Below are positions 1 to 54,508 of a DNA stretch of 54,508 nucleotides, piece by piece. The stretch's first letter is position 1. Every line of letters begins with the position of its first letter. Origin of the DNA: Anaerolineales bacterium (GTDB lineage: Bacteria; Chloroflexota; Anaerolineae; Anaerolineales; UBA11579); NCBI GenBank assembly GCA_046716985.1, contig JBKJWG010000315.1, forward strand, positions 1 through 54,508, given 5' to 3'. The notes beneath the pieces were generated by a model. The model ran no database searches. It saw nothing but the letters and a program-made list of their open reading frames with translations, and was not told where the DNA came from. Position numbers and translations under genes: made by a program.

Positions 1-621
1 GCGCTGCGCTTCTTGTTTCGGCTGGACGCAGCGTTGTACGCGCTGCAAGGCCCGCTGGCGGTTGCCTACAACGGAGGCGTGCATACCAAGCATCGCCATA
101 CCGCTTATCACGATTTCTTTGTCGAACGCATTAAAAAAGGCGAGCGAGTTCTCGATATTGGTTGCGGCATTGGCGCGGTGGCATACGATTTGGCCGAGCG
201 CGCGGGTGCCATCGTAGATGGGATCGATCTCAACGAGACAAGCATCGCTGAGGCCAAGCGGCGATTTGTCCATCCAAACTTGCACTTTGCTGTGCAAGAC
301 GCATTGAAGCTGGATGTGAAGCAAGCCTACGATGTTGTGCTGCTCTCCAATGTACTGGAACACCTGAATGGCCGTCCGGAGTTCCTGAGGCGGGTGCAAC
401 AGCTGACCGGTGCCAAACGATTGTTCGTGCGCGTGCCGCTCTTCGAGCGCGATTGGCGCGTGCCGCTGAAGAAGGAACTGGGCGTGGAATGGCGGCTGGA
501 CCTGGATCACAAAACCGAATACACGCTGGATAGCTTTACCCAAGATGTTAAAGACGCCGGGCTACAAGTTAAGCATTTGGAAGTTCGTTGGGGCGAGATC
601 TGGTCGGAGTTGCAAGCCTGA
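1..621 (+). CDS. class I SAM-dependent methyltransferase (5' end probably cut by window edge)
   Basis: The frame is open from base 1, and the track start at 13 is a TTG inside that open frame. Motif I 'VLDIGCGIGAVAYDLA' and 'VVLLSNVLEHL' are typical of Rossmann-fold Methyltransf_11/25 enzymes. Stop TGA 619-621 shares one base with the next ATG. Confidence 0.8.
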   Translation, partial: ALRFLFRLDAALYALQGPLAVAYNGGVHTKHRHTAYHDFFVERIKKGERVLDIGCGIGAVAYDLAERAGAIVDGIDLNETSIAEAKRRFVHPNLHFAVQDALKLDVKQAYDVVLLSNVLEHLNGRPEFLRRVQQLTGAKRLFVRVPLFERDWRVPLKKELGVEWRLDLDHKTEYTLDSFTQDVKDAGLQVKHLEVRWGEIWSELQA

Positions 622-1322
622 TGGAAACTTTGCCTTTCGATCAGCAGCTATCTTATTCACTGCGCCGTCAGCATGTGGATGATTTTCTTACGCGCACTAT
701 CGTAGAGGAAGAAGCGCGGCAATCTCTACTGGATGTAGGCGGAGTTAAAGATCAGCAGCGCGGTAAATTCAGCGTGCCACAATCGGGCTTCAATGTAATC
801 ACAGTCAATATCTCAACGGAAAAGAATATAGACGTGCGCGCGGACGCTGCCCGGCTGCCTGTTCGGCCTAATAGTTTCGAGTGGGTGCTGTGTTCTGAAG
901 TACTTGAACATGTGGAGGAACCCCTGCGTGTGGTGGCGGAAATCTTTCGCGTCCTGCGCCCAGGCGGTAACGCGGTCATTACTGTGCCATTTCTTTTCCG
1001 ATTACACGCTGATCCGGTTGATATTGGTCGTTACACGCATTGGTTTTGGCGGCAACAGCTTGAAAAGATCGGCTTTCGCCAAATAACAATTGAGAAACAG
1101 GACTTGTTTTGGTCAGTCATGGTCGACATGCTGCGGGAGTGGTTTCGATACCTGGTAGTAAGCGAGCGCTTTAAGAGCAGGCTGGCAATCAACGTTTTCT
1201 CGCGCTTGATCCGCCGCTTTCGAAAGGCCGCAACCGCATTTGATGCGAAGCCTGCACATCAGGAACACGACTTTTTCGGCCGATACACCAGCGGATTTGG
1301 TATCGTGGCCACTAAGCCTTAG
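621..1322 (+). CDS. class I SAM-dependent methyltransferase
   Basis: Track ORF 588-1322 begins at a TTG. The in-frame ATG at 621 abuts the upstream stop (TGATG) and is the likelier start. Motifs 'LLDVGGV', 'VLCSEVLEHVEEP' and 'LRPGGNAVITVP' form a methyltransferase core. Confidence 0.75.
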   Translation: METLPFDQQLSYSLRRQHVDDFLTRTIVEEEARQSLLDVGGVKDQQRGKFSVPQSGFNVITVNISTEKNIDVRADAARLPVRPNSFEWVLCSEVLEHVEEPLRVVAEIFRVLRPGGNAVITVPFLFRLHADPVDIGRYTHWFWRQQLEKIGFRQITIEKQDLFWSVMVDMLREWFRYLVVSERFKSRLAINVFSRLIRRFRKAATAFDAKPAHQEHDFFGRYTSGFGIVATKP

Positions 1323-1333
1323 CGACCGAATCA

Positions 1334-2449
1334 ATGACAAAACCGCGCGTTGCCTATTTGTTGCAAATGTTTGGGATCGGGGGCATGCCCAAATGGCTCT
1401 ATCATCTTGCCGGCCAATTGCGGTCAGAATTCGAGTTTACGTTCATTGCAACGCACTCGAGGTATGTGATCCCAGAATATCGAGATGTGGCGCGCGTGGT
1501 GGTGCTGCCTTTCAACAAATGGGCGCTGGCCGCTTATTTGTTTGCCAATCGCATCGACATTGCTCAAGTAGCCAACCTGCGCACGTATGTGGACGCGGCG
1601 CGGCTGGCGCGTGTGCCCGTGATCATCGAGCGTGTAGACGGAATGCGCCGTGGCGCGGCGCTAGGTGCAAAAGATGGCCTGGACGCGGTGATCGCCTCGA
1701 CCAATGGGATCGTTCCGGAACTAAAGAAATTGACCTCGCCCGAGAAAATAAAGCTCATCTACAACGGAGTTGATCTGAAATCGTACGCGCACGCCAGTCC
1801 TGAGCGCTTTGGTTTTGGCGAGCAGGATGTGATCATTGGCAGAACCTCGCGCTTGTCGGGCGGCAAGAATATTTCTCTGCTTATTCAAGCAGTTATTGAA
1901 TTGCGCAAAGAGAAAAAGTACAGCCATGTGCGTTTAGTGATCTGCGGCGGAGATACAACCCAGCCCGGGGCGGCGCCAATGCTCGAAACCTTGAGGCGAG
2001 AAGCTGGCCCGCTGGGCGAGAACGTCGTTTTCACCGGCGAAGTTTTGAATACAGTCGCTATTACCTGTGGGTACGATATCGCCACTTGCACCTCTAGACC
2101 CAACAATGAGGGCATCCCCAATTCATTGATCGAGGCAATGGCAGCGGGCAAGCCGGTGGTCGCTAGCGAGGTGGATGACATTCCGGAGCTGGTGGAGGAT
2201 AGGCGCACGGGACTGTTGTTCCCATCAGACGATCTGGCCCAATTGGGGCAAACGTTGAAAAAACTTGTTGATGATGAAGGTCTGCGAAAACAGATGGGCG
2301 CAACAGGCAAAAAGCGCGTTGCCGCGGATTTTGATCTTGAAAAACAGACTCGCAAATATGCACAACTCTACGCCGAGTTGCTGACACAAAAGGGAAGACA
2401 CCCAATGAATCGGACGCGTGCAGCCAGTGAGAAGGCGTTAATCTTATGA
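1334..2449 (+). CDS. GT4-family (GT-B) glycosyltransferase
   Basis: 371 aa with an ATG start. Carries the C-terminal Glycos_transf_1 signature 'NNEGIPNSLIEAMAAGKPVVASEVDDIPELVEDRRTGLLF'. Confidence 0.8.
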   Translation: MTKPRVAYLLQMFGIGGMPKWLYHLAGQLRSEFEFTFIATHSRYVIPEYRDVARVVVLPFNKWALAAYLFANRIDIAQVANLRTYVDAARLARVPVIIERVDGMRRGAALGAKDGLDAVIASTNGIVPELKKLTSPEKIKLIYNGVDLKSYAHASPERFGFGEQDVIIGRTSRLSGGKNISLLIQAVIELRKEKKYSHVRLVICGGDTTQPGAAPMLETLRREAGPLGENVVFTGEVLNTVAITCGYDIATCTSRPNNEGIPNSLIEAMAAGKPVVASEVDDIPELVEDRRTGLLFPSDDLAQLGQTLKKLVDDEGLRKQMGATGKKRVAADFDLEKQTRKYAQLYAELLTQKGRHPMNRTRAASEKALIL

Positions 2450-3540
2450 GCATCCCGCGCGGCGCCCGATCATTGTTTTCGCTCACGCGTCGAAGGTTGA
2501 ACCCGAGTACGCAACCGGCCCTTTATTACGTCGTGCCCGGCGTGAATTGGGTGCTCGATTGGGTGGGCCACTATGTAACCCAGGGCGTGCAAGACCAATT
2601 CGGTCTTGATGCGCACGTGGTGCAATCGGCGCGCGGGTTATCGAGGCAGATCGTGCACTATGGCTCACTGTGGGACATCCTCGCTAATTTGGAGGCGCGC
2701 CACACGGTGCGCAATCTAAGTGTAGGCACCATCTTCCACGGGCAAAAAGACAGCCCGGAATTCGAAGATGCGCTTGGCAGGGTTCTGGCCAAGGTACAGT
2801 CCTTTGCCAAGCTGCATACCGCTAGCTTAATCATGGAGCAGCGTTTGTTGGATTGGGGCGTCCCCGCCAACAAGCTAGCCTGCATCCCACTCGGAGTGGA
2901 TCTGCAACGCTTTCGCCCTGCCACCGCAGCTGAGCGCAGTGAGCGGCGTAAAGAGTTGGGCATATCCGATGATGCATTTTGCATCGGGTCGTTCCATAAG
3001 GATGGTCAGGGCATGGGCCAGGGTGATGTGCCGAAATTGATCAAGGGCCCCGATGTGCTTGTGGAGGTAATCGGCAAACTAGCTAAGCGGCAAAAGGTTT
3101 TTATTTTGCTGAGTGCGCCGGCACGCGGCTATGTGAAGAAAGGGCTGGATGCGCTTGGCGTTTCTTATCGTCACGTGGTCGAGGAAGACTACCACCGCAT
3201 CCCGCGTCTTTATCACGCGCTCGATCTTTACTTGCTGACTTCGCGCGAGGAAGGTGGCCCCAAAGGCGTGCTGGAGGCGCTGGCCTCCGGTGTGCCTTTC
3301 GTTGGCACGCGGGTTGGCTTGGTGCCCGATGTGATTAGGTCAGAGAAGCAAGGCTTTCTGGCAGATAGTGAGGATGTGCCAACCTTGACCGCCCACGTCG
3401 AGCGCTTGATCGAAGATCCCCAATTGCGAGCGAGCTTTTCGGCCGATGGTTTAAAAGCCATTCAGGCCTACGACTGGCCGATCATTGCTGCACGCTATTA
3501 CCGCGAAATTTATGAGCCTTTGTTACCCATCGCCAAATGA
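2446..3540 (+). CDS. GT4-family (GT-B) glycosyltransferase
   Basis: ATGA overlap with the upstream stop. Signature 'REEGGPKGVLEALASGVPFVGTRVGLVPDVI' is followed by 'GFLADSEDV'. Confidence 0.75.
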   Translation: MSIPRGARSLFSLTRRRLNPSTQPALYYVVPGVNWVLDWVGHYVTQGVQDQFGLDAHVVQSARGLSRQIVHYGSLWDILANLEARHTVRNLSVGTIFHGQKDSPEFEDALGRVLAKVQSFAKLHTASLIMEQRLLDWGVPANKLACIPLGVDLQRFRPATAAERSERRKELGISDDAFCIGSFHKDGQGMGQGDVPKLIKGPDVLVEVIGKLAKRQKVFILLSAPARGYVKKGLDALGVSYRHVVEEDYHRIPRLYHALDLYLLTSREEGGPKGVLEALASGVPFVGTRVGLVPDVIRSEKQGFLADSEDVPTLTAHVERLIEDPQLRASFSADGLKAIQAYDWPIIAARYYREIYEPLLPIAK

Positions 3541-4637
3541 AGCTGACCCTGTTTTTTACGGAAGGTGTGTCGCTGCAAACCTGGAACGAAGTAGGCATGC
3601 TAGATCGGGAGTTGGCCATTTATAAAGCCTTGCAAAAACGCGGCGTTAAGGTCGGCTTCGTTACGTATGGAAACAGTCGGGATCTGCAATTCGCCTCGCG
3701 GCTGCCTGGTATTGCGTTGCGCGCGAATGATTTAGGCTTGCCCATCTCTAAATATAAACGCGCTCTGCAAACAGAGCCGCCCATGGGCGATATATTCAAG
3801 AGCAATCAAGTGGCGGGGGCGGAAGTGGCGTTGAGCGCGGCGCGACAGGCGAAAACCAAATTCGTGGCGCGTTGCGGATATCTGTTATCGGAATTTCAAG
3901 AGCAGCGCTATGGGACCAAGTCCGGCGAGGCCAAGGCCGCTCGGGACTTAGAACGCGAAGTCTTCCTCGGCGCGGACGCGGTTGTCGTAACCACTGACGC
4001 GATGGCTAACTCGATCAAGGAACGCTACTCGGTTCAAGATAGCGTTATTCGAGTGATCCCAAATTATGTTGAAACCGACCGATTTGCTCCTTTAAGACGG
4101 GATCCCAATCAAAAGTTTCGTATTGCATTTGTCGGGCGCCTGGATAAACAAAAGAACTTATTTGCGTTTGTGGAGGCTGTCGCGCCATTGGATGTCGAAG
4201 TATGGCTGATTGGTTACGGTCCGCAGCGCGCCGAATTGGAGAAGAAGGGGCGGGGTTCAAAGGCAGACTTCCGCTTTGTAGGCAACGTTCCCAATGTGGA
4301 ATTGCCGGGCTTGTTGAATAGCTGCGATATTTTCGTGCTGCCGTCCCTTTATGAAGGCCACCCGAAGGCATTGCTGGAAGCGATGGCGTGCGGGCTGCCC
4401 GTCATCGGCACCAGGGTAGCGGGAACCCGCGAGCTGATTCAAGATGGTGAAAACGGGGTCGTGTGTGAAACGAACGCCGCAAGCATTCGCTCGGCGATCG
4501 AGCGACTGGTCAACGATGCTGCTTTGCGCAAAAGATTAGGGAAGGCAGCGCGGTCTTTTATCGAGAAACGATTTGCTCTAGATCGCGTAGTTGAGCTCGA
4601 AATGAGCTTGCTAAATGAGTTGGTGGATCAGAAATAA
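3537..4637 (+). CDS. GT4-family (GT-B) glycosyltransferase
   Basis: ATGA overlap with the upstream stop. Signature 'YEGHPKALLEAMACGLPVIGTRVAGTRELIQDGENGVV'. Confidence 0.8.
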   Translation: MKLTLFFTEGVSLQTWNEVGMLDRELAIYKALQKRGVKVGFVTYGNSRDLQFASRLPGIALRANDLGLPISKYKRALQTEPPMGDIFKSNQVAGAEVALSAARQAKTKFVARCGYLLSEFQEQRYGTKSGEAKAARDLEREVFLGADAVVVTTDAMANSIKERYSVQDSVIRVIPNYVETDRFAPLRRDPNQKFRIAFVGRLDKQKNLFAFVEAVAPLDVEVWLIGYGPQRAELEKKGRGSKADFRFVGNVPNVELPGLLNSCDIFVLPSLYEGHPKALLEAMACGLPVIGTRVAGTRELIQDGENGVVCETNAASIRSAIERLVNDAALRKRLGKAARSFIEKRFALDRVVELEMSLLNELVDQK

Positions 4638-5653
4638 TGCCAAAGATATCGGTTGTAATGGCCGTCCGCAACGGGATGCCTTTTCTGTCTGAGACCGTCC
4701 AGAGCATTTTGGATCAGAGCTTTCGCGATTTCGAGTTCATCGTGATCGATGATGCCTCGTCGGACGGTAGTTCAAAGGTCTTGCATGAGATCAAAGATGA
4801 CCGAGTACAGATGATTACGAATAAAAAACAATTAGGTCTATCTCGCAGCCTGAACAAGGGCTTGGCGGCAGCCAAGGGCAAATACATCGCCCGTATGGAT
4901 CATGACGACATAAGCTTGCCAGGCCGGCTGGCTGCCCAGTCTGATTATTTGGAATCTAATCCAAGAATTGATGTAGTGGGCACCTGGGCGCGCACCCTTG
5001 GTTTGCACCGCGAACAAACCTGGAATTATCCGACCACCGACGAAGAGATACGCGCTGAAATGCTGTTTAGCTCGGTTCTGGTGCATTCTTCTGTCCTGCT
5101 CAGGCGTTCAACTTTTGCGAAATACAAATTGCGCTATGATCCCGAGGTGACTCGCGCCCAGGATTACGAGCTCTGGACGCGGGGAGCTAAGCACCTTCGC
5201 TTTGCCAATCTAGGCAAAGTCTTGCTGCGCTATCGCATCCACCCGCAGCAAGTTGGCCGAAACCACGGTAATCAGCAGCAAGCGGTGGCTGCTAAGATAC
5301 GAGCCAGGCAACTTAGAGCATTAGGCTGGCGACCCAGCCAAAGTCAGCTTAACCTTCATAATTTGATCAGTCAATGGAGTTTTCCGGCTTCACGCGCTGG
5401 ATTGTTGGAGGTCGAGAGCTGGCTTCTGGCGATCCGTTTCGCTAATGAACAAACTCGGGGCTACGATCCAAAAGGGTTGGATGCCGTTTTGGAGCGGCGC
5501 TGGTGGGCGGCATGCCGAGCTGCGATCAATTTAGGCAAGCCGGCATGGGCCTTATACAAAGGTTCAAACCTGGCGAGCCAAAGCAATCGCTCGGCAACCG
5601 ACAAGGCTGTTTTTTGGTCTAAGGCTTTGCTGCGAGAAGGCCGCCAACGATGA
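4637..5653 (+). CDS. GT2-family (GT-A) glycosyltransferase
   Basis: TAATG junction with the upstream gene. N-terminal 'ISVVMAVRNGMPFLSETVQSILDQSFRDFEFIVIDDASSDGS' and DxD-type 'ARMDHDDIS' match the classic Glycos_transf_2 layout. Confidence 0.85.
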   Translation: MPKISVVMAVRNGMPFLSETVQSILDQSFRDFEFIVIDDASSDGSSKVLHEIKDDRVQMITNKKQLGLSRSLNKGLAAAKGKYIARMDHDDISLPGRLAAQSDYLESNPRIDVVGTWARTLGLHREQTWNYPTTDEEIRAEMLFSSVLVHSSVLLRRSTFAKYKLRYDPEVTRAQDYELWTRGAKHLRFANLGKVLLRYRIHPQQVGRNHGNQQQAVAAKIRARQLRALGWRPSQSQLNLHNLISQWSFPASRAGLLEVESWLLAIRFANEQTRGYDPKGLDAVLERRWWAACRAAINLGKPAWALYKGSNLASQSNRSATDKAVFWSKALLREGRQR

Positions 5654-6870
5654 AATTTGCCTCGCCACTGAAGATCGCCATTGTTGCCGCGTCGGCGCCC
5701 CCTCACAGCTCGGGAGGGGTTGCCAGCGCGCACTACAACCTTTTCTGTGCGCTAAAAGATAAAGGGCTTTCGGTAAAACTATTCACTTTTTTCGATAACG
5801 GGATTTTGGAAAACCGTGGCGGCTCCATTGTTCGGCGCGGCGCTTCGGCGCGGCTGGTAAAGGCGATCTATTGGCTGGCGCAACTGCCGTTTCGGATCAT
5901 TCAACCTGGCAAATTGGCATATCAAAGCGCGGTAATTTTTAGATCATCCATCGGCGCGTTCAAAATGGGGCGCGCCGTGGTCCAGTTTGATCCAGATATC
6001 GTCATTCTTTCCGATCATGGAGCTCCCGGGTTGTTCGTCCAAAAAAGAGCCGGGCAAAGATTCGTGTTGATCTCTCACCATAACCCCGCCCGCTTTGCGA
6101 AGGAACCATTGCTGGGTGATTATTCCGCACTGGATGCCAGGCTAGCGATCAAGCTCGAAGAAATAGTCTTGAAGAAAGTTGACCAAGTGATTTGCCCTTC
6201 GCGCTACATCTCAAAATGGTTCCACAAAACCTACTCTTTTGAGGGCCCGGTAAGCGTTTTGCCAAATTTGATCGACCTTAGATTGATCGATTCGATAAAG
6301 CCTGCTGCTGCGCGCAAACAAATGAAGCTGCCTAAAGAGGCGATATTGATCTACTTGCCATCCGCCGGCACGCGTATCAAAGGCTCTCATTTTCTTGTGG
6401 CGATCATTGACGGACTATTCAAGACGACGAAGAAAAAAATCGGACTATATATTCCTGGCTATGTGGACGAGGATATGAAAAACCAGTTGAAGGCTGACCG
6501 ACGAGCCGATTCCCTTTATATGCCAGGGCAACTTAATTACAAGGAACATGTGGCAATCGTCAAGGTTTGCAGTTTCGGCATCACCCCGGCAGTAATGGAA
6601 AATTTCAGCATGGCCATCCTTGAAGCCACCTATTCGGGGGTGCCGATGCTTGCATTCCAGCGGGGCGGCAACGAAGATATTATCGAGAACGGCAAGAACG
6701 GCTACTTATTTCCCGCCTTCAATGTGAAAAAAATGCTCGAAGTGGCAAATCATCTAATGGGCAACGAGCGAATTAATGCTTTCAAGAAGCGAACAAAGAG
6801 TTTTACGCGCAAAAAATTCAATTCAGAATTAATCCTAGAACAGTATTTGCAAGTACTGGGCATTGGTTAA
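5650..6870 (+). CDS. GT4-family (GT-B) glycosyltransferase
   Basis: ATGA overlap with the upstream stop. Signature 'MENFSMAILEATYSGVPMLAFQRGGNEDIIENGKNGYLF'. The gene lies in a visibly AT-richer stretch. Confidence 0.75.
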   Translation: MKFASPLKIAIVAASAPPHSSGGVASAHYNLFCALKDKGLSVKLFTFFDNGILENRGGSIVRRGASARLVKAIYWLAQLPFRIIQPGKLAYQSAVIFRSSIGAFKMGRAVVQFDPDIVILSDHGAPGLFVQKRAGQRFVLISHHNPARFAKEPLLGDYSALDARLAIKLEEIVLKKVDQVICPSRYISKWFHKTYSFEGPVSVLPNLIDLRLIDSIKPAAARKQMKLPKEAILIYLPSAGTRIKGSHFLVAIIDGLFKTTKKKIGLYIPGYVDEDMKNQLKADRRADSLYMPGQLNYKEHVAIVKVCSFGITPAVMENFSMAILEATYSGVPMLAFQRGGNEDIIENGKNGYLFPAFNVKKMLEVANHLMGNERINAFKKRTKSFTRKKFNSELILEQYLQVLGIG

Positions 6871-6887
6871 GCGGAATTGGACAAGCT

Positions 6888-7802: not shown

Positions 7803-7817
7803 TTCCCCGGAAACAAA

Positions 7818-8849: not shown

Positions 8850-8900
8850 AATGCTACAGGCAACGGGTGCGCACCATATAATTTCCCTTTGGGAGAGCGA

Positions 8901-10426: not shown

Positions 10427-10434
10427 CCTAGCGA

Positions 10435-11202: not shown

Positions 11203-11204
11203 AT

Positions 11205-14330: not shown

Positions 14331-14357
14331 GTCGCTATAATCGCTTCTTCGGATTGA

Positions 14358-31523: not shown

Positions 31524-33352
<1,829 letters not shown>

Positions 33353-48843: not shown

Positions 48844-48846
48844 CGC

Positions 48847-50478
48847 CTACTGTTCTATTCGACTATTCACAAGGTCCCACAAAATATACGGTGAATCGGT
48901 GCGGATAAACAAAGGGAAGCCATCCACCAGGAAATATTCGTACCCGCCTGCTTCGAGGTAAGGCTGCATCTCTGTAGTGCTGCCCCAGATCTGCGCAACG
49001 ATATCGGGCTGCAGGTCCACAATGGAGTGCTGGTAATCCCACTTGTTGTGGCCGGGACGAAAGATATCGTCGACGTTGTCGAACACGCCGCCGTTGTCGT
49101 GCGGCTGGCTGTGGGCGATGACGCGATCACTTTTGCCAAGCATGTCGATGCCGGCGCGCTCGGCAAAATAAATGATATTGCCAGCGGTCACCACGGCGAT
49201 CTTGGCTTGGGGATCAGTGATCTCGTTTATTAGCAGGCCGAGGGTTACGTAGCGCTGCGTGCCGGCCACGAAGATCGGGCGCTTGATCAATGCCCATTTT
49301 TCGAATGGATCATTCTCGTTGATCACGTTGAAGCTAAATAAGCTGGCCGCTACAAAACCTGCCAGCAAAATCTGGCTGATAGGTTTCGTCCAACTCCCCT
49401 TGCGCAAACTGAGCAAGGCGCGGCGGATCTTATCCAGCGTCTGCACAAAGAGGATGAAAAATAACGGCATAGCGATGGCGATAAAGCGGTTTGCGCCGCC
49501 CTTGTGCTCCCAGGCGTCGCCACCTACATAAATGCTGTAGATGATCTGCCCCAGCAGCAGGCTGAACAGCAAAAGGGCGGGCGGCTCGGGCCAAAGCAGA
49601 AGCAGCAGAACCGGAATCATCATTAGGAACCAGCCTGAGCCCCACACGAAACCCCAAAAAACCGACCAGCCGCGCTGCGCTCGGTCTAGCAGCGAAACAC
49701 CGACGACTTTTAGATAGTAAGTGTTTGGGAGCCAGTCCCCGTAATACAAGCGGCGAGCGATGGTTTGCACAAGCAGCGAACCCGCAAACAGCCCGAGGCC
49801 CCAGCTGAGATGCTGCTTGCGATGCTTGCGATCCTTCCAGGCGAAGAAGGCTGTGAGCATCACAAGCGGCACGACCATGTCCACGCGCACAAAAGTGCCA
49901 AGGGTAAGCAAAGCGTAGGGCCAAATCGAGAATCGTTTGGCTTTGAAATTGCGCAGGGCTAGCAACGTAGCGGCGCTAAGCAACAACACAAGCGCGCTGA
50001 CTTCCATGCCCTGCAGGCTCCAATTGTTCAGATGAAAATAAAATGCGGTCAGAAAGACCGCAAGCAGCGGCGCTAGAGCGCCCTCCAGCACCTCATCGGC
50101 GATCTTCTTGACAACGATCAGATTGGCGAACAGCAGCACCGCCCCGCTGACCTGGATCGGCAAGCTAACCTCGTTGCTGGGGATCTGAAAGAGATGCCAG
50201 AAGGCCATGTAGAAGACCCACAAGGGATTGCTAAAGCCCTCCACGCGTTCGCCGCCGGCGTTCCACACCAGGCCATGGCCTTGCGCCAGATTTCGGGCAT
50301 ATTGCATGGAGATCATTGCGTCGTCGAAGAGGGCGAAGTAGCGCTGGCCGTTGATCTCGAAGCTGGTGCGTTCGATGAAGCGGGCGGCGTAGACCGAAAA
50401 AGCCAGCAGGATGAGCAGGGAAGCGGCCAGCGCCAGGCGTTTGGCTTGTGTCTTCGAGACCTTGGGTGGATTGAGCAT
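48847..50478 (-). CDS. GT-C-like polytopic membrane protein with conserved C-terminal extracytoplasmic domain (paralog 1 of tandem pair)
   Basis: 543 aa and collinear with 47248-48843. 'FDDAMISMQYARNLAQGHGLVWNAGGERVEGFSNPLW', 'YVGGDAWEHKGGANRF', 'VVTAGNIIYF' and 'RPGHNKWDY...LQPDIVAQIW'. A 3-nt gap separates it from the downstream paralog. Confidence 0.55.
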   Translation of the reverse strand: MLNPPKVSKTQAKRLALAASLLILLAFSVYAARFIERTSFEINGQRYFALFDDAMISMQYARNLAQGHGLVWNAGGERVEGFSNPLWVFYMAFWHLFQIPSNEVSLPIQVSGAVLLFANLIVVKKIADEVLEGALAPLLAVFLTAFYFHLNNWSLQGMEVSALVLLLSAATLLALRNFKAKRFSIWPYALLTLGTFVRVDMVVPLVMLTAFFAWKDRKHRKQHLSWGLGLFAGSLLVQTIARRLYYGDWLPNTYYLKVVGVSLLDRAQRGWSVFWGFVWGSGWFLMMIPVLLLLLWPEPPALLLFSLLLGQIIYSIYVGGDAWEHKGGANRFIAIAMPLFFILFVQTLDKIRRALLSLRKGSWTKPISQILLAGFVAASLFSFNVINENDPFEKWALIKRPIFVAGTQRYVTLGLLINEITDPQAKIAVVTAGNIIYFAERAGIDMLGKSDRVIAHSQPHDNGGVFDNVDDIFRPGHNKWDYQHSIVDLQPDIVAQIWGSTTEMQPYLEAGGYEYFLVDGFPLFIRTDSPYILWDLVNSRIEQ

Positions 50479-50508
50479 TGGGATGCGCCTTGACGGAGGC
50501 GCGGTGGC

Positions 50509-50514
50509 ATTATA
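50509..50514 (-). promoter_or_regulatory. candidate -10 box (TATAAT) for the minus-strand GT-C pair
   Basis: The plus-strand ATTATA at 50509-50514 reads TATAAT on the minus strand. It lies 31-36 nt upstream of the ATG at 50478. I found no good -35. A GCGCCT/AGGCGC hairpin (50485-50502) would sit in the short leader. Confidence 0.3.
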
Positions 50515-50752
50515 ACCATCCAGACGAGTGAGGAAAGTTTTAATTATTATCAGTCTGAGGCAGGGGATGTTCGTTAATAGTTAATACTTGCCCTGAACGG
50601 AGCTGGCGATACGCAAAAGATATTATTCCGCGAGGATCGGGGGTGGGGATCGGTAATAAGTTGTCAAGTGGTAACAACTTCATGAGGCTTGACAAGAGAA
50701 AACTCGTTTTTCATGAAATAGTCTCCCAGGTTGCACGGTCACATTATTAACA

Positions 50753-50791
50753 TGAATGTCAGGGGGCGGAGGGAAATTCGGCTGAATGTCA
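50753..50791. repeat. direct repeat TGAATGTCA x2, 30-nt periodicity
   Basis: TGAATGTCA occurs at 50753-50761 and again at 50783-50791, in the divergent intergenic region. Confidence 0.5.
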
Positions 50792-50805
50792 AGGCATTGA
50801 CGGTG

Positions 50806-50869
50806 GGCGCACTGCGGTGCGCCTCTTACGCGGTGAAGGTTGCAGAACGGGCGGGTCTCAGACCCGCCC
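50806..50869. repeat. two GC-rich perfect hairpins (REP-like)
   Basis: GGCGCAC (50806-50812) pairs with GTGCGCC (50817-50823) across loop TGCG. GGGCGGGTC (50849-50857) pairs with GACCCGCCC (50861-50869) across loop TCA. The flanking GGTTGCAG and CTACAACC can extend the second stem imperfectly. Confidence 0.6.
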
Positions 50870-50922
50870 TACAACCCCGTCTGCGGTTTGGAAGCTACAC
50901 AAAACGGTGAGTTCGGTGGATT

Positions 50923-50976
50923 CTTCGCGGAGTTTACACTGAGCACTTCGCTCTGCTCAGTGTAAACTCCGCGAAG
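50923..50976. repeat. perfect 23-bp-arm palindrome (REP/MITE-like element or protein-binding site)
   Basis: CTTCGCGGAGTTTACACTGAGCA (50923-50945) pairs with TGCTCAGTGTAAACTCCGCGAAG (50954-50976) across loop CTTCGCTC (50946-50953). I checked the arms base by base. GAGCACTTCG (50941-50950) can alternatively pair with CGAAGTGCTC (50972-50981). Confidence 0.8.
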
Positions 50977-51047
50977 TGCTCAGAATGACAAGGGCGGCCT
51001 CATCAACTCAATTTCCTTCATGGTATCATTTTACTGTTGCCCGCTTG

Positions 51048-51078
51048 ACAGCCTGCTTTGACAAGCAGGCTGTTTTTT
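51048..51078 (+). terminator. intrinsic-terminator-like hairpin plus T5-6 tract, 33 nt upstream of the sat-cysC start
   Basis: ACAGCCTGCT (51048-51057) pairs perfectly with AGCAGGCTGT (51064-51073) across loop TTGACA, followed by TTTTT (51074-51078). No plus-strand gene lies upstream for it to terminate. The minus-strand reading has no T-tract. Confidence 0.5.
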
Positions 51079-51080
51079 AG

Positions 51081-52871
<1,791 letters not shown>

Positions 52872-52889
52872 CGAGTCCGCAGCACGCGA

Positions 52890-53702
52890 ATGTCACAAAT
52901 TCAACAAGCGTTCGATCTGAGTGGCCGCGTTGCACTGGTGACAGGCGGCGCGGGCCTGCTCGGGCAACAATTTTGCCGAACGCTGGTTCAGGCGGGCGCC
53001 TCGGTAGTGGTGGCAGACTTGAATGAGAAAGCTGCCAGCGAACTTGCCAACAAGCTGGGCGCTAAGGCAAAAGCCGCCGGGTGCGATGTAGGCGATAAAG
53101 CATCGGTGCAGGCGGCGGTGGATGCCGCCGTGAAAAGTTTCGGGCGGCTGGATATTTTGGTGAACAGCGCCGCGCTGGATCCGAAGTTCGATGCAACCGA
53201 GGCGGGCAAGCACAGCAGTTCGTTCGAAGACTATTCGTTGGAAGATTGGGAAAAAGCGCTGCGAGTCAACCTGACCGGCGCTTTTCTTTTTTCCCAAGCT
53301 GCGCTGAGGGAAATGTTGAAGCAAAAGAGCGGAGTGATCATCAATATCTGCTCGACCTATGGTTTGGGCGGCCCGGACCAACGCATCTATCAGAAAAAAG
53401 GTAAGCCCCCAGCTTATAAACCGGTTGATTACACAGTCACCAAGGCCGGCATTCTGGGTCTTACAAAATACCTGGCCACTTATTACGGCGATAAAAATAT
53501 TCGCGTCAATGCACTCACGCCAGGCGGCGTGCAGAACACGCAAGACGAAGAATTGGTACAGGCTTACTCGGCGCGCACGGTGCTGGGGCGCATGGCGCGA
53601 CCGGACGAAATGAACGGGGCGCTACTATTTTTGGCTTCGGACGCGTCCAGTTACATGACCGGCGCCAACCTGGTGGTCGATGGGGGCTGGACGGCGTGGT
53701 GA
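52890..53702 (+). CDS. classical short-chain dehydrogenase/reductase (SDR)
   Basis: 'VALVTGGAGLLGQQF', 'LVNSAAL' and the catalytic 'YTVTKAGILGL' (YxxxK). 270 aa. Confidence 0.85.
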   Translation: MSQIQQAFDLSGRVALVTGGAGLLGQQFCRTLVQAGASVVVADLNEKAASELANKLGAKAKAAGCDVGDKASVQAAVDAAVKSFGRLDILVNSAALDPKFDATEAGKHSSSFEDYSLEDWEKALRVNLTGAFLFSQAALREMLKQKSGVIINICSTYGLGGPDQRIYQKKGKPPAYKPVDYTVTKAGILGLTKYLATYYGDKNIRVNALTPGGVQNTQDEELVQAYSARTVLGRMARPDEMNGALLFLASDASSYMTGANLVVDGGWTAW

Positions 53703-54508
53703 GCCCCAAGAAGCGGCCCGAAGTGCTGGCAATCATTCCGGCGCGCGGAGGCTCGAAGAGCATCCCGCGCAAGAACGCGCAGCTGTTCGCCGGGCACCCA
53801 CTGCTGGCCTTTAGTGTTGCAGCGGGGCTGCGTGCTAAGAGCGTGACGCGGGTCATCATTTCGACGGATGACGAAGCCATGGCCGAGATGGCGCGGCAGC
53901 TGGGGGCTGAGGCGCCGTTCCTGCGCCCCAGCCAACTGGCGCAAGACGACACGCTCGACCTGCCAGTTTTTCAGCACGCGCTCAATTGGCTGGCTAAGGA
54001 AGAAGTCTACAAGCCCGACATTGTGGTCCAGCTTCGCCCGACTTCGCCGCTGCGCCCACCCGATCTGGTGGACCGCGCGGTCAAGGCCTTGCTCGAGCAT
54101 GCAAAGGCGGACTCGGCGCGCGGCGTGGTGCCGGCCGGGCAAAATCCGTACAAGATGTGGTCAATTGGCGCGAGCGGCGCGCTGCAGCCTTTGCTTAAGC
54201 TCAAGGGCGTGGCTGAGCCCTATAACGCGCTGCGCCAAAAGCTGCCGCCTGTTTATTGGCAGACCGGGCACGTTGACGCGATCCGCATTGCGACAATTTT
54301 GAAAAAAGAGAGCATGAGCGGAGAAGTGATCTGGCCGGTTGTGATCGACGCGCGTTACACCGTGGACATCCACCCCCCCAACGTTTGGCGCCGCGCCGTG
54401 GGGCTCGCCACCGGGGGCGAGCTGTATCTGATTGGGCCGGCCAAGGCGCCGCGGCCGTTCCCCAAACAAGTCAAAATGCTGGTGATGGATTTCGATGGCG
54501 TGCTCAGC
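53699..54508 (+). CDS. CMP-N-acylneuraminate/NulO cytidylyltransferase (NeuA-like) fused to the start of a HAD phosphatase domain, 3'-truncated by window edge
   Basis: This ORF is not in the track. A GTG at 53699 forms a GTGA overlap with the SDR stop and opens a frame that runs stop-free for 270 codons to the window end. My translation gives 'VLAIIPARGGSKSIPRKN', 'VIISTDDEAMAEMARQLGAEAPFLRP' and 'VVQLRPTSPLR' (CTP_transf_3). It ends 'KMLVMDFDGVLS', which is HAD motif I (DxDG). Confidence 0.8.
   Translation, partial: MSPKKRPEVLAIIPARGGSKSIPRKNAQLFAGHPLLAFSVAAGLRAKSVTRVIISTDDEAMAEMARQLGAEAPFLRPSQLAQDDTLDLPVFQHALNWLAKEEVYKPDIVVQLRPTSPLRPPDLVDRAVKALLEHAKADSARGVVPAGQNPYKMWSIGASGALQPLLKLKGVAEPYNALRQKLPPVYWQTGHVDAIRIATILKKESMSGEVIWPVVIDARYTVDIHPPNVWRRAVGLATGGELYLIGPAKAPRPFPKQVKMLVMDFDGVLS

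Follow-up and report, generated by a model that had tools for sequence, protein, structure and literature searches.

A modular Anaerolineales locus predicted to assemble a cell-surface heteropolysaccharide in two compartments

Overview of the locus

We consider, with moderate confidence, that a contig from an uncultured Anaerolineales bacterium (Chloroflexota; metagenome-assembled genome) is a single modular locus for a cell-envelope heteropolysaccharide assembled in two compartments. The window, that is the whole 54,508-nt contig, is filled by 47 tightly packed open reading frames (ORFs), counted from the ORF list together with two extra ORFs (8889-9314, and one open at its 3' end from 53702) and the 5'-open first ORF. 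Forty-five of the 47 genes lie on the plus strand. Neighboring genes overlap at 23 of the 46 junctions, with a median gap of -0.5 nt, and only one gap is large, at 632 nt (50479-51110). The original prediction of 47 tightly coupled genes is thereby confirmed, and this operon-like packing was counted in favor of one locus. The sections below document gene families, folds of GT-C type, conservation of active sites, synteny and modularity; from these we infer all substrates, the step order and the service of all enzymes to one polymer. The strategy is already known, and is found here in an unusually elaborate, unstudied form. Novel features are its scale, the lineage that carries it, the GT-C family of g16, which lacks annotation, and a cassette suggestive of tailored lipid-linked donors.

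Cytoplasmic glycosyltransferases

About 22 glycosyltransferases had been predicted; we count 21, namely 15 soluble or peripheral enzymes of GT-A or GT-B type and six polytopic GT-C enzymes. Pfam searches of the window ORFs place seven of the former in GT4 (g03, g04, g05, g07, g12, g15, g35) and six in GT2 (g06, g09 weakly, g13, g14, g20, g38), the others being one Capsule_synth protein (g30) and one Glyphos_transf/BFO_1060-like protein (g39). The 13 GT4 and GT2 enzymes, with g30 and g39, would assemble a lipid-linked glycan in the cytoplasm.

1334-2449 (+): g03, GT4 (GT-B) glycosyltransferase (Glyco_trans_1_4, 3.8e-28)
2446-3540 (+): g04, GT4 glycosyltransferase (Glycos_transf_1, 1.2e-18)
3537-4637 (+): g05, GT4 glycosyltransferase (Glycos_transf_1, 1.8e-35)
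4637-5653 (+): g06, GT2 (GT-A) glycosyltransferase (Glycos_transf_2, 7.5e-29)
5650-6870 (+): g07, GT4 glycosyltransferase (Glycos_transf_1, 1.7e-16)
7818-8849 (+): g09, weak GT2-like protein, kept in relatives (Glycos_transf_2, 24.7 bits, cutoff 23.3)
11124-12389 (+): g12, GT4 glycosyltransferase, start probably further downstream (Glycos_transf_1, 7.2e-26; ortholog 392 aa)
12430-13380 (+): g13, GT2 glycosyltransferase (Glycos_transf_2, 5.3e-10)
13380-14330 (+): g14, GT2 glycosyltransferase (Glycos_transf_2, 9.6e-37)
14358-15518 (+): g15, GT4 glycosyltransferase, conserved partner of g16, 11-nt overlap (Glycos_transf_1, 6.1e-44)
40090-41160 (+): g35, GT4 glycosyltransferase (Glycos_transf_1, 6.7e-30)
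41816-42823 (+): g37, conserved protein, family unassigned (60% identical to its ortholog in relative locus L002)
42823-43797 (+): g38, GT2 glycosyltransferase (Glycos_transf_2, 7.3e-12)
43716-45239 (+): g39, Glyphos_transf/BFO_1060-like putative transferase (Glyphos_transf, 23 bits)

The match of g39 to NF046086 (3.7e-10) is far under cutoff, and a PDB search with g39 gave no match; Pfam and NCBIfam searches with g37 gave none either. Longest-ORF starts probably overshoot in six ORFs (g12, g30, g36, g37, g39, g40), since the orthologs in one relative are 23 to 34 aa shorter.

Sugar supply and modification

Methylation, sulfation and ulosonic acids had been proposed, and the corresponding genes are present: seven SAM methyltransferases, a B12-radical-SAM enzyme (g18), and sulfation and nonulosonic-acid genes.

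1-621 (+): g01, class-I SAM methyltransferase, 5' end open at the contig edge (Methyltransf_25, 5e-16)
588-1322 (+): g02, SAM methyltransferase (Methyltransf_11, 2.5e-13)
6888-7802 (+): g08, SAM methyltransferase in a low-GC patch (Methyltransf_11, 9e-11)
8889-9314 (+): g09b, small cupin-like protein, weakly WbuC-like (TIGR04366, 27.8 bits, cutoff 42)
9311-10426 (+): g10, PLP sugar aminotransferase, DegT, LegC/PseC-like (DegT_DnrJ_EryC1, 1.8e-113)
10435-11202 (+): g11, SAM methyltransferase (Methyltransf_25, 1.9e-20)
30486-31523 (+): g26, NAD-dependent sugar epimerase/dehydratase (Epimerase, 1.8e-44)
31530-32489 (+): g27, GDP-L-fucose-synthase-like reductase/epimerase (Epimerase, 2.2e-57)
37071-38078 (+): g32, PseB, inverting UDP-GlcNAc 4,6-dehydratase (TIGR03589, 485 bits, cutoff 407.75)
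38075-39007 (+): g33, RmlD-like 4-reductase (RmlD_sub_bind, 3e-59)
39010-40074 (+): g34, NeuB-family nonulosonic acid synthase (NeuB, 6.2e-65, plus SAF)
41091-41918 (+): g36, CMP-ulosonic-acid cytidylyltransferase (CTP_transf_3, 1.4e-37)
45164-46258 (+): g40, sulfotransferase (Sulfotransfer_3, 1.1e-20)
46259-47251 (+): g41, GFO/IDH/MocA oxidoreductase (Pfam, 4.7e-22)
51111-52871 (+): g44, bifunctional ATP sulfurylase/APS kinase, PAPS supply (ATP-sulfurylase, 1.4e-84; APS_kinase, 1.2e-63)
52890-53702 (+): g45, short-chain dehydrogenase (adh_short_C2, 2e-54)
53702-54508 (+): g46, second cytidylyltransferase, 3' end cut by the contig edge (CTP_transf_3, 4.2e-19)

Sugars predicted to be made in situ are a GDP-6-deoxyhexose (g26/g27; g27 matches NF047922 at 9.3e-94, under cutoff), an amino sugar (g09b/g10) and a Pse/Leg-type nonulosonic acid (g32-g34, g36). 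Matches of g10 to LegC (6e-91) and PseC (1.8e-84) are each under the equivalog cutoff; g09b has no Pfam match and is 72 to 84% identical in relatives. The patch carrying g08 has a GC content of 0.43 to 0.48, and this gene varies among relatives, with an ortholog in locus L017 only. The SAM methyltransferases and the PAPS-dependent sulfotransferase g40, supplied by g44, would modify the glycan; the predicted product is probably a methylated, sulfated, acidic cell-surface polysaccharide.

Export, capping and initiation

An ABC exporter had been placed at 32486-34636, and the domains of g28 and g29 bear this out.

29996-30508 (+): g25, winged-helix (MarR-like) regulator, first gene of a conserved export block (HTH_24, 3.3e-12)
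32486-33352 (+): g28, Wzm, ABC-2 permease (ABC2_membrane, 2e-19)
33353-34636 (+): g29, Wzt, ATPase with a C-terminal carbohydrate-binding domain (ABC_tran, 4.8e-19; Wzt_C, 36.1 bits, cutoff 30.4)
34558-36222 (+): g30, KpsS/KpsC-type putative ulosonic-acid transferase (Capsule_synth, 34.2 bits, cutoff 20)
36203-37057 (+): g31, SAM methyltransferase adjoining Wzt and g30, candidate chain-end capper (Methyltransf_11, 5.3e-16)

In 22 of 47 loci g25 is followed by g26-g29, and the order g28-g31 is kept in loci L031, L043 and L051. The chain end would be capped by g30 and/or g31, and the cap read by the C-terminal domain of Wzt before export by Wzm/Wzt. Recognition of a chemically modified chain end by the carbohydrate-binding domain of Wzt is established (PMC9445017); the WbbB beta-Kdo cap is a known modification of this kind (PMC9587256).

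A Pfam scan of all window ORFs (E<=1e-3) agrees with the original prediction that an initiating phosphoglycosyltransferase, Wzx, Wzy and ligase are missing: it gave no match to phosphoglycosyltransferase, Wzx, Wzy/WaaL, LCP or GtrA families, nor a flippase of GtrA, Wzx or MATE type. Absence of Wzx and Wzy is expected in an ABC pathway. Initiation and anchoring had been thought to be either encoded elsewhere or unconventional. We retain the former: phosphoglycosyltransferase, flippase and ligase are usually encoded elsewhere in ABC-exported precedents (TagO, CflA, LcpA; PMC9574508), and their absence is therefore no evidence for unconventional initiation, although it was counted among the points against two-compartment assembly. 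Initiation, donor flipping and final anchoring would be encoded outside the window, as in known ABC-dependent systems.

GT-C enzymes and lipid-linked donors

The polytopic intervals listed as GT-C-like, including the merely possible 15508-17589, all prove polytopic and test as GT-C. The interval 47248-50478 was rejected as a single gene, and consists of two minus-strand paralogs.

15508-17589 (+): g16, GT-C-fold enzyme, 693 aa (AlphaFold2 and Foldseek)
17576-20224 (+): g17, predicted GT-C, 882 aa, heading the g17-g22 cassette (AlphaFold2 and Foldseek; PMT_2, 22 bits, under cutoff)
20283-21767 (+): g18, B12-binding radical-SAM (methyl)transferase (Radical_SAM, 8.2e-24, plus B12-binding)
21764-22396 (+): g19, SAM methyltransferase (Methyltransf_23, 1.4e-10)
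22401-23345 (+): g20, polyprenyl-phosphate-sugar synthase, GT2 with a C-terminal TM anchor (Glycos_transf_2, 4.6e-20)
23349-24281 (+): g21, SAM methyltransferase (Methyltransf_23, 2.9e-27)
24339-25772 (+): g22, FAD enzyme, UDP-galactopyranose-mutase-like (Amino_oxidase, 3.4e-17; weak GLF)
25787-28390 (+): g23, predicted GT-C, g17 paralog (37% identity over 867 columns, 1e-133)
28392-29945 (+): g24, predicted GT-C of the PMT_2 family (29.1 bits, cutoff 26.1)
47248-48843 (-): g42, AftB-like predicted GT-C (51.5% identical to g43; row of the g42/g43-family alignment)
48847-50478 (-): g43, AftB-like predicted GT-C (family profile against PDB: AftB 9dlf, 1.1e-5)

Pfam and NCBIfam searches with g16 gave no match. 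Its AlphaFold2 model (pLDDT 85.4) has STT3, PglB and ArnT as its twelve top Foldseek matches (probability 0.90-1.00, ten at 1.00; best E-value 4.4e-4), against at most 0.12 for transporters. E188, invariant in the family, sits where the first loop helix begins. By its model, g16 tests as a GT-C fold, representing an Anaerolineales-wide unannotated family and a core marker of the locus. The model of g17 (pLDDT 86.9) shows an extra N-terminal helix bundle and a C-terminal beta-sandwich, and matches STT3A, AglB, PglB and ArnT with probability 0.96-1.00, at weak E-values of about 0.02 to 0.2 (at least 0.017). For g16 and g17 alike, GT-C enzymes are the only matches of high Foldseek probability, and TM-scores are about 0.2 to 0.4. 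Homologs of g17 carry PF13231, and D290 is invariant in the family; g23, assigned by paralogy, has the invariant columns. In g24, a loop motif E114-D115-A, read from the translation, lies past the third hydrophobic segment. Residues D53, E159 and R198 of g43 align with D62, E172 and R221 of AftB, which are catalytic and substrate-binding (PMC12041299), including the catalytic DD motif; g42 shares the invariant D-D, E and R columns. By model, paralogy or profile, the membrane proteins match GT-C enzymes, and neither transporters nor Wzy-type polymerases, although the weak g17 E-values, the TM-scores and the weak profile-profile links between the GT-C families count against our preferred reading.

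The polyprenyl-phosphate-sugar synthase predicted at 22401-23345 is upheld by the GT2 domain of g20, about two C-terminal TM helices (about 241-300) and an AglJ-like profile (TIGR04182, 5.7e-65, under the equivalog cutoff); matches to Dol-P-hexose transferase (8.4e-29) and PpgS (2.1e-18) are lower, and g20 most resembles Dol-P/polyprenyl-P-sugar synthases of the AglJ/dolichyl-P-hexose kind. It would load a sugar onto polyprenyl phosphate. The cassette donor would probably be tailored beforehand in the cytoplasm by the mutase-like g22 (best PDB relatives: full-length eukaryote-type UGMs, 1.5e-11), the methyltransferases g19 and g21, and g18, whose nearest NCBIfam families are P- and C-methyltransferases, each under cutoff. 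After flipping by a flippase encoded outside the window, g16, g17, g23, g24, g42 and g43 would extend the exported polymer or furnish it with side branches. A lone synthase beside six GT-C enzymes means that donors are shared or come from elsewhere, a point against our preferred reading.

The two-stage pathway originally proposed is thus supported by gene content, predicted folds and synteny; that GT-C enzymes act on the ABC-exported polymer we still infer. Mycobacterial arabinogalactan had been offered as best precedent, but closer parallels are rhamnans and O antigens that ABC transporters export and GtrB-like/GT-C systems decorate (PMC9574508, PMC8035078, PMC11127046). Experiments have established the same two-stage logic, multi-component transmembrane glycosylation, for rhamnose cell-wall polysaccharides and O antigens (PMC9574508, PMC11127046).

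Synteny and modularity

Nearly the whole order g09b-g46 is collinear on one contig of GCA_040902205.1, and g09-g25 are common to about a dozen species (50 to 88% identity). The block is thus conserved in related species, rather than formed of independently distributed loci that happen to be adjacent. A more distant genome repeats the theme: GT4, g16, PMT-type GT-C, methyltransferases, GT2, regulator and Wzm/Wzt. The recurrent core comprises g16 with its GT4 partner, and the block of regulator, Wzm and Wzt. The g17-g22 cassette occurs either whole or not at all (10/10 loci having it, 0/37 without it) and g23-g24 form another optional unit; the locus is therefore modular, and its extracytoplasmic stage largely accessory to the core.

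A GT4 gene adjoins g16 upstream in 43 of 60 loci. Wzm/Wzt lies within 10 kb of g16 in 20 of 44 full-length loci; in a further eight, the long cassette displaces the exporter past the fetched flank. The remaining 16 have no exporter within 10 kb and no long cassette as explanation, which counts against two-compartment assembly.

Alternative scenarios

Three other scenarios are considered. In the first, which we hold unlikely, the contig is a supercluster for at least two glycoconjugates: the Wzm/Wzt polymer is finished in the cytoplasm, while g20 and some or all GT-C enzymes (PMT_2/GT39-like, AftB-like) serve surface or S-layer proteins or a separate lipoglycan, co-located for co-regulation only. 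The acceptors of PMT-type GT-C enzymes can be proteins instead of polysaccharides, as with actinobacterial Pmt/Ppm1, which weighs against our preferred reading. The PMT_2 assignment of g24 fits this scenario, as does a GT-C beside g16 in L050 that matches the protein-O-mannosyltransferase family PF02366 (56.6 bits). GT-C modules are also gained and lost independently of the exporter block, and g42/g43 are oriented convergently with the remaining genes and belong to a far larger family than g17 (2626 against 144 matches). However, the modules are always inserted at one site, between g16 and the regulator/exporter block, and the AftB-like active site suggests a polysaccharide acceptor. Moreover, the g17 beta-sandwich, with its conserved cysteines, resembles glycan-binding modules described in polysaccharide GT-C enzymes (GT136/Emb; PMC11127046).

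Distinctly less likely is that g16 acts as an STT3/PglB-like transferase or ligase, transferring the exported polymer whole from the lipid carrier onto a protein, peptidoglycan or another glycan. O-oligosaccharyltransferases for S-layer glycans exist in ABC-dependent Gram-positive pathways, and no gene of the locus is conserved more widely than g16, which has 490 genomic relatives and occurs without another nearby GT-C in L038, L043, L048 and L059. Its best structural matches are oligosaccharyltransferases (nearly full-length alignment, TM 0.36-0.43), its model has a C-terminal soluble alpha/beta domain, and the locus lacks an LCP or WaaL ligase; a GT-C moving whole glycans is known in Lactococcus (WpsJ, PMC9574508). 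Yet donor type cannot be told from fold alone: Foldseek also returns the monosaccharide transferases ArnT and PimE (probability 0.8-1.0), and the invariant residues of the family show no WWDYG-type motif. In many genomes, moreover, an opposite-strand GT2 weakly similar to g20 (20 to 27%) lies near g16; in L050, the single case inspected, this GT2 is fused to a methyltransferase.

Finally, capsule-like initiation, in which g30 and a second Capsule_synth gene would, in the manner of KpsS/KpsC, build a ulosonic-acid linker on a glycerophospholipid, giving a membrane-anchored lipoglycan that needs no phosphoglycosyltransferase, would agree with the Capsule_synth domain of g30, the two cytidylyltransferases, the lack of a phosphoglycosyltransferase in the window and, in a relative, a second Capsule_synth protein beside a NeuB-like synthase and a cytidylyltransferase-HAD fusion, but is very improbable, given that g30 does not match KpsC structures significantly (best E 0.29), that phosphoglycosyltransferases encoded elsewhere are the norm in ABC-dependent systems (PMC9574508) and that the Wzt carbohydrate-binding module is typical of O-polysaccharide-type exporters reading a terminal cap (PMC9445017). 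The ortholog of g46 is such a fusion with a HAD phosphatase, 415 aa long (Hydrolase_3). In relatives, the second Capsule_synth gene occupies a position just past the end of this contig.

Gene content and organization

The 47 genes comprise a mechanical ORF list, supplemented with a 141-aa ORF at 8889-9314 and an open-ended ORF starting at 53702. They are tightly packed: 45 of them lie on the plus strand, neighbours overlap at 23 of the 46 junctions, and the median gap is -0.5 nt. The sole true intergenic gap, of 632 nt (50479-51110), separates the divergent genes g43 and g44. Scans of the window for tRNAs and Rfam families gave no match, the 632-nt gap included. The window is a complete contig (54,508 bp) of an Anaerolineales (Chloroflexota) metagenome-assembled genome. 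Its terminal ORFs are both cut by the contig ends, and the locus is therefore larger than the window. Families were assigned by Pfam and NCBIfam scans of every window ORF.

Gene families in the locus (genes numbered along the plus strand; plus strand unless indicated)

g03, g04, g05, g07, g12, g15, g35: seven GT4 glycosyltransferases (Pfam)
g06, g09 (marginal), g13, g14, g20, g38: six GT2 glycosyltransferases (Pfam)
g30: Capsule_synth (KpsS/KpsC-type) protein, Pfam-level assignment only
g39: Glyphos_transf/BFO_1060-like protein
15508-17589, g16: GT-C candidate
17576-20224, g17: GT-C candidate
25787-28390, g23: GT-C candidate
28392-29945, g24: GT-C candidate
47248-48843 (minus strand), g42: GT-C candidate
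48847-50478 (minus strand), g43: GT-C candidate
g28: Wzm (ABC2_membrane 2e-19, 70.4 bits)
g29: Wzt (ABC_tran 69.8 bits; Wzt_C 36.1 bits, cutoff 30.4)
g01, g02, g08, g11, g19, g21, g31: seven class-I SAM methyltransferases
20283-21767, g18: B12-binding radical-SAM enzyme
g40: sulfotransferase
g44: fused ATP-sulfurylase/APS-kinase (PAPS synthase)
g32: PseB (485 bits, equivalog cutoff 407.75)
g33: RmlD-like reductase
g34: NeuB-family synthase
g36, g46: cytidylyltransferases
g10: DegT aminotransferase
g26, g27: NAD-dependent sugar epimerase/reductases, g27 being GDP-fucose-synthase-like
g22: UDP-galactopyranose-mutase (UGM)-like flavoenzyme (best PDB relatives full-length UGMs, 1.5e-11)
g25: winged-helix regulator

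The Pfam/NCBIfam scans and the GT-C tests described below give 15 soluble glycosyltransferases and 21 in total, within one gene of the 'about 22' of the original prediction. A PDB search with g39 gave nothing. The Wzm/Wzt exporter that had been predicted is borne out by its ABC2_membrane and ABC_tran domains and by a Wzt_C domain that scores above cutoff. The polyprenyl-P-sugar synthase was likewise correctly recognized: g20 is an AglJ/Dol-P-hexose/PpgS-like GT2 with C-terminal TM helices (AglJ 5.7e-65, dolichyl-P-hexose 8.4e-29, polyprenyl-P-GalNAc synthase 2.1e-18, all below equivalog cutoffs). This one co-located gene suggests that a lipid-phosphate sugar donor may be supplied to GT-Cs at the outer face.

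The Pse/Leg-type gene set includes a PseB above cutoff, and an aminotransferase, a synthase and a cytidylyltransferase at the family level only. PseH and PseG were not found among the window ORFs by Pfam/NCBIfam, and an RmlD-like reductase is present instead. Judging from these families, the nonulosonic acid is likely to be a variant sugar.

TTG and GTG often serve as start codons in the mechanically listed ORFs. For g12 (11124), g30 (34558), g36 (41091), g37 (41816), g39 (43716) and g40 (45164), the longest-ORF start overlaps the preceding gene by 70 to 103 nt, and the orthologs in a relative are 23 to 34 aa shorter, which places the true starts of these six genes probably downstream. Inside the 632-nt gap, at 51047-51074 (plus strand), lies a hairpin whose 12-bp stem (GACAGCCTGCTT/AAGCAGGCTGTT) is perfect and encloses a 4-nt loop, accompanied by a T-run. 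It sits 37 nt upstream of the PAPS synthase gene g44, and could be a terminator or attenuator in its leader.

Six membrane proteins with GT-C features

GT-C enzymes are the most plausible assignment for all six large membrane proteins, with the firmest support for g16, g17/g23 and g42/g43 and family-level support for g24. A hydropathy scan found 7 to 16 hydrophobic segments in each. With PMT_2 (PF13231; GT39/GT83-like; gathering threshold 26.1 bits), g24 scores above threshold (29.1) and g17 below (22), while Pfam/NCBIfam gave no such match for g16, g23, g42 and g43; precomputed PF13231 matches exist on some homologs of g17 and g43. In g24, inspection by eye points to an E114-D115 loop motif. 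Single-sequence searches of the PDB with g16, g17, g24 and g43 returned nothing meaningful, and profile searches with the g17 and g16 families returned nothing; among the family profiles run on the PDB, only that of g43 reached AftB.

The region 47248-50478 had been described as one GT-C-like protein. The GT-C assignment holds, and the region consists of two minus-strand genes, g42 and g43, whose products are 51.5% identical. Their family profile (36 sequences) matches Mycobacterium chubuense AftB (9dlf, chain C) with an E of 1.1e-5, over AftB residues 60-319 only, a stretch that ends short of R372, and profile residues ~47-292. In this alignment AftB D61-D62, E172 and R221 face g43 D52-D53, E159 and R198, and these columns are invariant in the family alignment, g42 included. 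In AftB the DD motif is catalytic, E172 binds the C5-OH of arabinofuranose, and R221 is essential (PMC12041299). We therefore describe g42 and g43 as AftB-like in their predicted active site, yet do not file them as arabinosyltransferases, because no family for decaprenyl-P-arabinose supply (UbiA-type DPPR synthase, DprE1/DprE2) occurs among the 47 ORFs.

For g16 and g17, AF2 models were compared with known structures by Foldseek; both are helical bundles. The g17 model (40-sequence family alignment, pLDDT 86.9, pTM 0.88) matches STT3A (probability 1.00), AglB (0.99), PglB (0.96-0.99), ArnT (0.97) and DPY19 (0.72); all its high-probability matches are GT-C, albeit with E values of only 0.017-0.2 and TM-scores of 0.2-0.3, and transporters and complex-I subunits stay at or below 0.2. 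The paralog g23 is 37% identical to g17 (1e-133). For g16 (37 sequences, pLDDT 85.4, pTM 0.86), the top twelve matches are yeast/human STT3, PglB and ArnT, with probabilities of 0.90-1.00 (ten at 1.00), E values from 4.4e-4 and TM-scores of 0.28-0.43; PimE (0.80), EmbB (0.44) and transporters (at most 0.12) come lower. The predicted GT-C fold is thus what Foldseek recovers for the two modelled proteins, and not a transporter or polymerase fold. In both models an invariant acidic residue (E188 in g16, D290 in g17/g23) is the first residue of a short post-TM helix; the catalytic carboxylate of GT-C_A enzymes sits at this position, on the tip of juxtamembrane helix 1 within the first outer loop (PMC12041299).

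The alternative that the big membrane proteins are transporters or Wzy/WaaL-type polymerases is rejected, as those folds reach a probability of at most 0.2 against the g16 and g17 models.

Comparison of family profiles with hhalign gave a weak link between g42/g43 and g17 (E 0.003, probability 10%), a match restricted to the N-terminal 70 residues between g16 and g17, and nothing between g16 and g42/g43 or between g24 and g42/g43. The six GT-Cs therefore cannot be joined by sequence alone.

Both models begin with an additional bundle of helices that precedes the canonical first TM helix and outer loop, of about 4-5 helices in g16 (residues 1-174, window 15508-16030) and about 8 in g17/g23 (g17 residues 1-265, window 17576-18370). 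Over the first ~100 residues, hhalign finds a faint similarity between the g16 and g17 families (E 0.0014, probability 18%). This bundle may be a fused accessory or flippase-like module. In the protein collection, g16 and g17 have matches at 100% identity, and the best match of g43 among those listed is at 90%, which probably reflects a different start codon in the database entry, or else the limited number of matches listed.

A conserved core with accessory modules

Conservation of the whole block across related genomes had been named as a test of the original prediction, and tblastn mapping of the window proteins onto the loci of g16 relatives supports it, with the addition that the locus is modular. 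On contig JBBDXR010000008.1 of GCA_040902205.1, the order g09b-g25 recurs with 58-86% protein identity and the order g33-g46 with 57-84%, the two blocks being ~8 kb apart; by NCBI locus tags, the orthologs of g16 and g42 show the same 26-gene spacing as the window genes. Two parts form the core: a GT4 gene (g15) followed by g16, with GT4 upstream of g16 in 43 of 60 loci, and the block g25-g26-g27-Wzm-Wzt-g30(-g31-g32-g33).

Between them, the optional module g17-g18-(g19)-g20-g21-g22 behaves as all-or-none. Among the 47 loci with sufficient flank, g18 is present in ten; all ten also have a g17/g23-type GT-C, g20 and g21, and eight have g22, the other two being cut by the flank. None of the 37 loci without g18 has orthologs of g20, g21 or g22. 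Five genomes proceed from g16 to g23-g24 and then to g25 with no cassette, and four directly from g16 to g25. In the more distant genome L050 (a 4.9-Mb contig), the genes after g16 encode an unrelated PMT/PMT_2 GT-C, a methyltransferase and a methyltransferase-GT2 fusion, and the regulator/Wzm/Wzt block comes next. No similarity could be detected between g24 and that PMT-type GT-C. From gene order we conclude that the block is no chance juxtaposition: the locus is modular, and its GT-C modules are accessory insertions at a fixed site. The possibility of unrelated adjacent loci is rejected, since order and insertion site are kept across species.

Upstream of g09b the content varies, with methyltransferases and a GT2 in one relative and amidotransferase-type genes in another, so that this region resembles a serotype-variable one. 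A low-GC patch at 6100-7900 (0.43-0.48, against 0.52-0.57 elsewhere) covers the methyltransferase gene g08 together with the 3' end of g07, and a g08 ortholog was seen in one related locus only. This patch suggests a recently acquired or serotype-variable segment.

g16 itself has no Pfam or NCBIfam model. Its family counts 1136 representatives at 50% identity clustering (680 with E<=1e-30), and a scan of species-representative genomes yielded 490 relatives, the best 80 of which belong without exception to Chloroflexota MAGs, in most cases under the label Anaerolineales, Anaerolineae or Anaerolineaceae. The named homologs of g16 and g17 all come from Anaerolineales, Anaerolineae or Chloroflexi MAGs. 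Pfam found no informative fused domain in ten longer family members, and the matches listed in an exhaustive representative search were strong g16-family members only, with no bridge to a known family. The most conserved gene of the locus, g16, appears to found a GT-C family so far without annotation. In many genomes a GT2 gene with weak similarity to g20 (20-27%) lies near g16 on the opposite strand. In L050 it is the methyltransferase-GT2 fusion (477 aa, 14426-15859, minus strand), beside the PMT-type GT-C; the arrangement is reminiscent of the bifunctional methyl-glycosyltransferases acting as chain terminators in ABC-dependent pathways.

A putative two-compartment pathway

We consider it reasonably probable that the locus directs a two-compartment glycan assembly, for which all substrates are predictions. 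The GT4/GT2 set would build a lipid-linked glycan in the cytoplasm from locally made precursors. O-methylation and sulfation would also be cytoplasmic, because SAM and PAPS are cytoplasmic cofactors. The growing end would then be capped by g30 and/or g31, which directly follow wzt in a conserved order and are candidate terminators by family and position. The C-terminal domain of Wzt may read this cap, as in cap-dependent O-antigen exporters (PMC9445017, PMC9587256), before export of the chain by Wzm/Wzt. Outside, the GT-Cs would add branches or extensions from polyprenyl-phosphate sugars.

The question arises as to how the chain is initiated and anchored. Pfam detects no Wzx or Wzy in any window ORF, no phosphoglycosyltransferase or ligase is found in the window, and no GtrA/Wzx/MATE flippase in the window or in the scanned parts of related loci. 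The absence of initiation and anchoring genes from the window, as first noted, is thus upheld. It had been taken to leave room for unconventional initiation, a suggestion that we do not retain: in Lactococcus, TagO, the flippase CflA and LcpA are encoded outside the polysaccharide locus (PMC9574508), and given that the best-studied precedents encode these functions elsewhere, their absence is not evidence for an unconventional mechanism.

Some of the GT-Cs may instead glycosylate proteins or a second glycoconjugate, a reading favoured by the presence of families of the PMT type, by modules that are distributed independently and by the fact that g42/g43 are convergently oriented. Alternatively, g16 may be an en-bloc transferase or ligase. 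Its conservation, its C-terminal soluble domain and the oligosaccharyltransferases among its best structural matches point that way; ArnT and PimE match too, however, no WWDYG-like motif is evident, and the fold alone cannot tell the donor type. A KpsS/KpsC-type ulosonic-acid linker, built on a glycerolipid by g30 and a second Capsule_synth gene past the contig end to give a lipoglycan, fits poorly with the CBM carried by Wzt and with a g30 that has no significant similarity to KpsC structures (its only PDB match, to KpsC, is insignificant, E 0.29).

Within the two-compartment scheme, the g17-g22 cassette looks like a self-contained branch-adding unit, made of the synthase g20, the GT-C g17 and four tailoring enzymes. 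The AF2 model and the alignment give g17 a C-terminal beta-sandwich with conserved cysteines. Methylation cannot take place outside the cell, and g18, g19 and g21 would therefore have to act on a nucleotide sugar or on a lipid-linked donor before flipping. The GT136 system, in which undecaprenyl-P-ribofuranose is epimerised in the cytoplasm, is a precedent for such donor tailoring (PMC11127046). The curated families nearest to g18, all below cutoff, are P-methyltransferases (Sden_1168 family 1.4e-42, PhpK family 1.2e-28) and C-methyltransferases; its place inside a decoration cassette suggests a C-methyl or otherwise unusually methylated sugar. More speculatively, the UGM-like g22 and the AftB-like g42/g43 may point to furanose residues.

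With its UGM-like mutase, its pair of SAM methyltransferases and its B12-radical-SAM enzyme, the cassette could yield as donor a polyprenyl-phosphate hexofuranose, O- and/or C-methylated in the cytoplasm before flipping. As a ligase, g16 could join the polymer exported by the ABC transporter to the wall, or to proteins on the surface, of these monoderm-like bacteria. That g16 is the missing ligase/oligosaccharyltransferase, and/or that g17-g22 makes a new type of GT-C donor, seems to us improbable on present data. Either would nevertheless represent a new reaction type in extracytoplasmic glycan assembly, and offer molecular access to the outer envelope layers of Chloroflexota, which are chemically undefined.

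Comparison with known systems

The two-compartment logic itself is established in Firmicutes rhamnans, in GtrABC/GT136 O antigens and in mycobacterial arabinogalactan. In the streptococcal, lactococcal and enterococcal rhamnose polysaccharides (rgp/gac/cwps/epa), a backbone made on a lipid carrier is exported by an ABC-2 transporter and decorated outside by GT-Cs (CsdB, GacL, WpsJ type) fed by a GT-A polyprenyl-P-sugar synthase; the genes for TagO, CflA and the LCP ligase often lie outside the locus, which itself has a conserved portion and a variable one (PMC9574508, PMC8035078). Our locus shares ABC export, GT-C and synthase genes, a presumably off-locus phosphoglycosyltransferase, flippase and ligase, and conserved and variable parts. 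It differs in its Chloroflexota host, its six GT-C genes in one locus, its Wzt with a putatively cap-reading CBM, and, in the window, by the lack of dTDP-rhamnose genes and by an abundance of methyltransferases, a sulfotransferase plus PAPS synthase, and genes for nonulosonic acids. Its GT-C families presumably also lack recognizable sequence similarity to the Firmicutes enzymes.

In the GtrABC type and in the GT136 system of Citrobacter youngae O1/O2, a GT-C attaches side chains from a lipid-monophosphate sugar donor once the polymer has been made and exported; the donor can be tailored by auxiliary enzymes in the cytoplasm, and the GT-C may bear a C-terminal glycan-binding module (PMC11127046). 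The window likewise has a synthase, a GT-C with a C-terminal beta-sandwich and candidate tailoring enzymes. In contrast, it has no GtrA, MATE or Wzx flippase, g20 is GtrB/AglJ-like and not of the PRPP-dependent UbiA type, and a tailoring set of UGM-like mutase, two methyltransferases and B12-radical-SAM enzyme is not described in the surveyed literature on such systems.

In mycobacterial arabinogalactan, galactan is exported by Wzm-Wzt and then extended by AftA/Emb/AftB/AftD. This was the precedent named in the original prediction, and it receives unexpected direct support from g42/g43, detectable AftB homologs that keep the DD/E172/R221 equivalents. The ABC export gene set, the several GT-Cs and the furanose-forming mutase homolog are further shared features. 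It is not, however, the closest one: g20 is a nucleotide-sugar-dependent GT2, the DPPR synthase and DprE1/DprE2 are missing from the window, as are Emb- or AftD-size enzymes, and the AftB homology is partial. In its predicted donor chemistry the locus is nearer to the Gtr/Csd type. The two-compartment interpretation as a whole is partly supported, by the fold (g16, g17) and synteny tests, with a modular locus and another nearest precedent.

The Wzm/Wzt O-polysaccharides of E. coli O9a and Klebsiella O12/Raoultella WbbB have chain-terminating caps, and their Wzt a C-terminal CBM (PMC9445017, PMC9587256). The CBM is also found here, with a methyltransferase gene and an ulosonic-acid-transferase-like gene directly downstream of wzt; unlike in these systems, the host probably has a monoderm envelope that lacks LPS (PMC13319060), and the terminators are putative, g30 being assigned at the Pfam level only.

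What distinguishes the locus from its precedents is the lineage, six GT-Cs of four unrelated families around one exporter, the widespread g16 family without annotation, the tailoring-rich cassette, and the combination of methylation, sulfation and ulosonic acids. Its scale is larger, with six GT-C genes and eight methylating enzymes. A literature search found no description of such a locus in Anaerolineae. Anaerolineales are abundant in sediments, groundwater and activated sludge. Chloroflexota stain Gram-negative, lack LPS and BAM genes, and have a multilayered envelope whose composition is described as unclear (PMC13319060). The locus is an order-wide candidate for a major Anaerolineales envelope glycan, and offers defined targets: the g16 GT-C family, the g17-g22 donor-tailoring cassette, and AftB-like enzymes beyond Actinobacteria. 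As judged from gene families and models, the strategy of ABC export followed by GT-C finishing, known from Firmicutes, Proteobacteria and mycobacteria, would extend to a deep-branching phylum. A glycan that is methylated, sulfated and acidic, as predicted, would influence the charge and hydrophobicity of the surface, phage recognition and floc/filament behaviour.

Additional genes in related loci

Some Anaerolineales genomes (L024, L031, L036, L040 and L041) have, on the upstream side of their g14-g15-g16 orthologs, another Wzm/Wzt pair that shares 43-46% identity with g28/g29 and is followed by NeuB-like and cytidylyltransferase genes; in L031 and L040, g16 has an exporter on either side. In the GCA_040902205.1 locus, the region past the g46 equivalent (L002 1-5619) adds a 290-aa NeuB-like synthase, a 536-aa second Capsule_synth protein and an 85-aa PP-binding acyl-carrier protein, along with a 394-aa protein with a faint class-II aminoacyl-tRNA-synthetase match and an acetyltransferase. 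These genes hint at a second (Kdn/Kdo-like) ulosonic acid and at an aminoacyl or acyl decoration.
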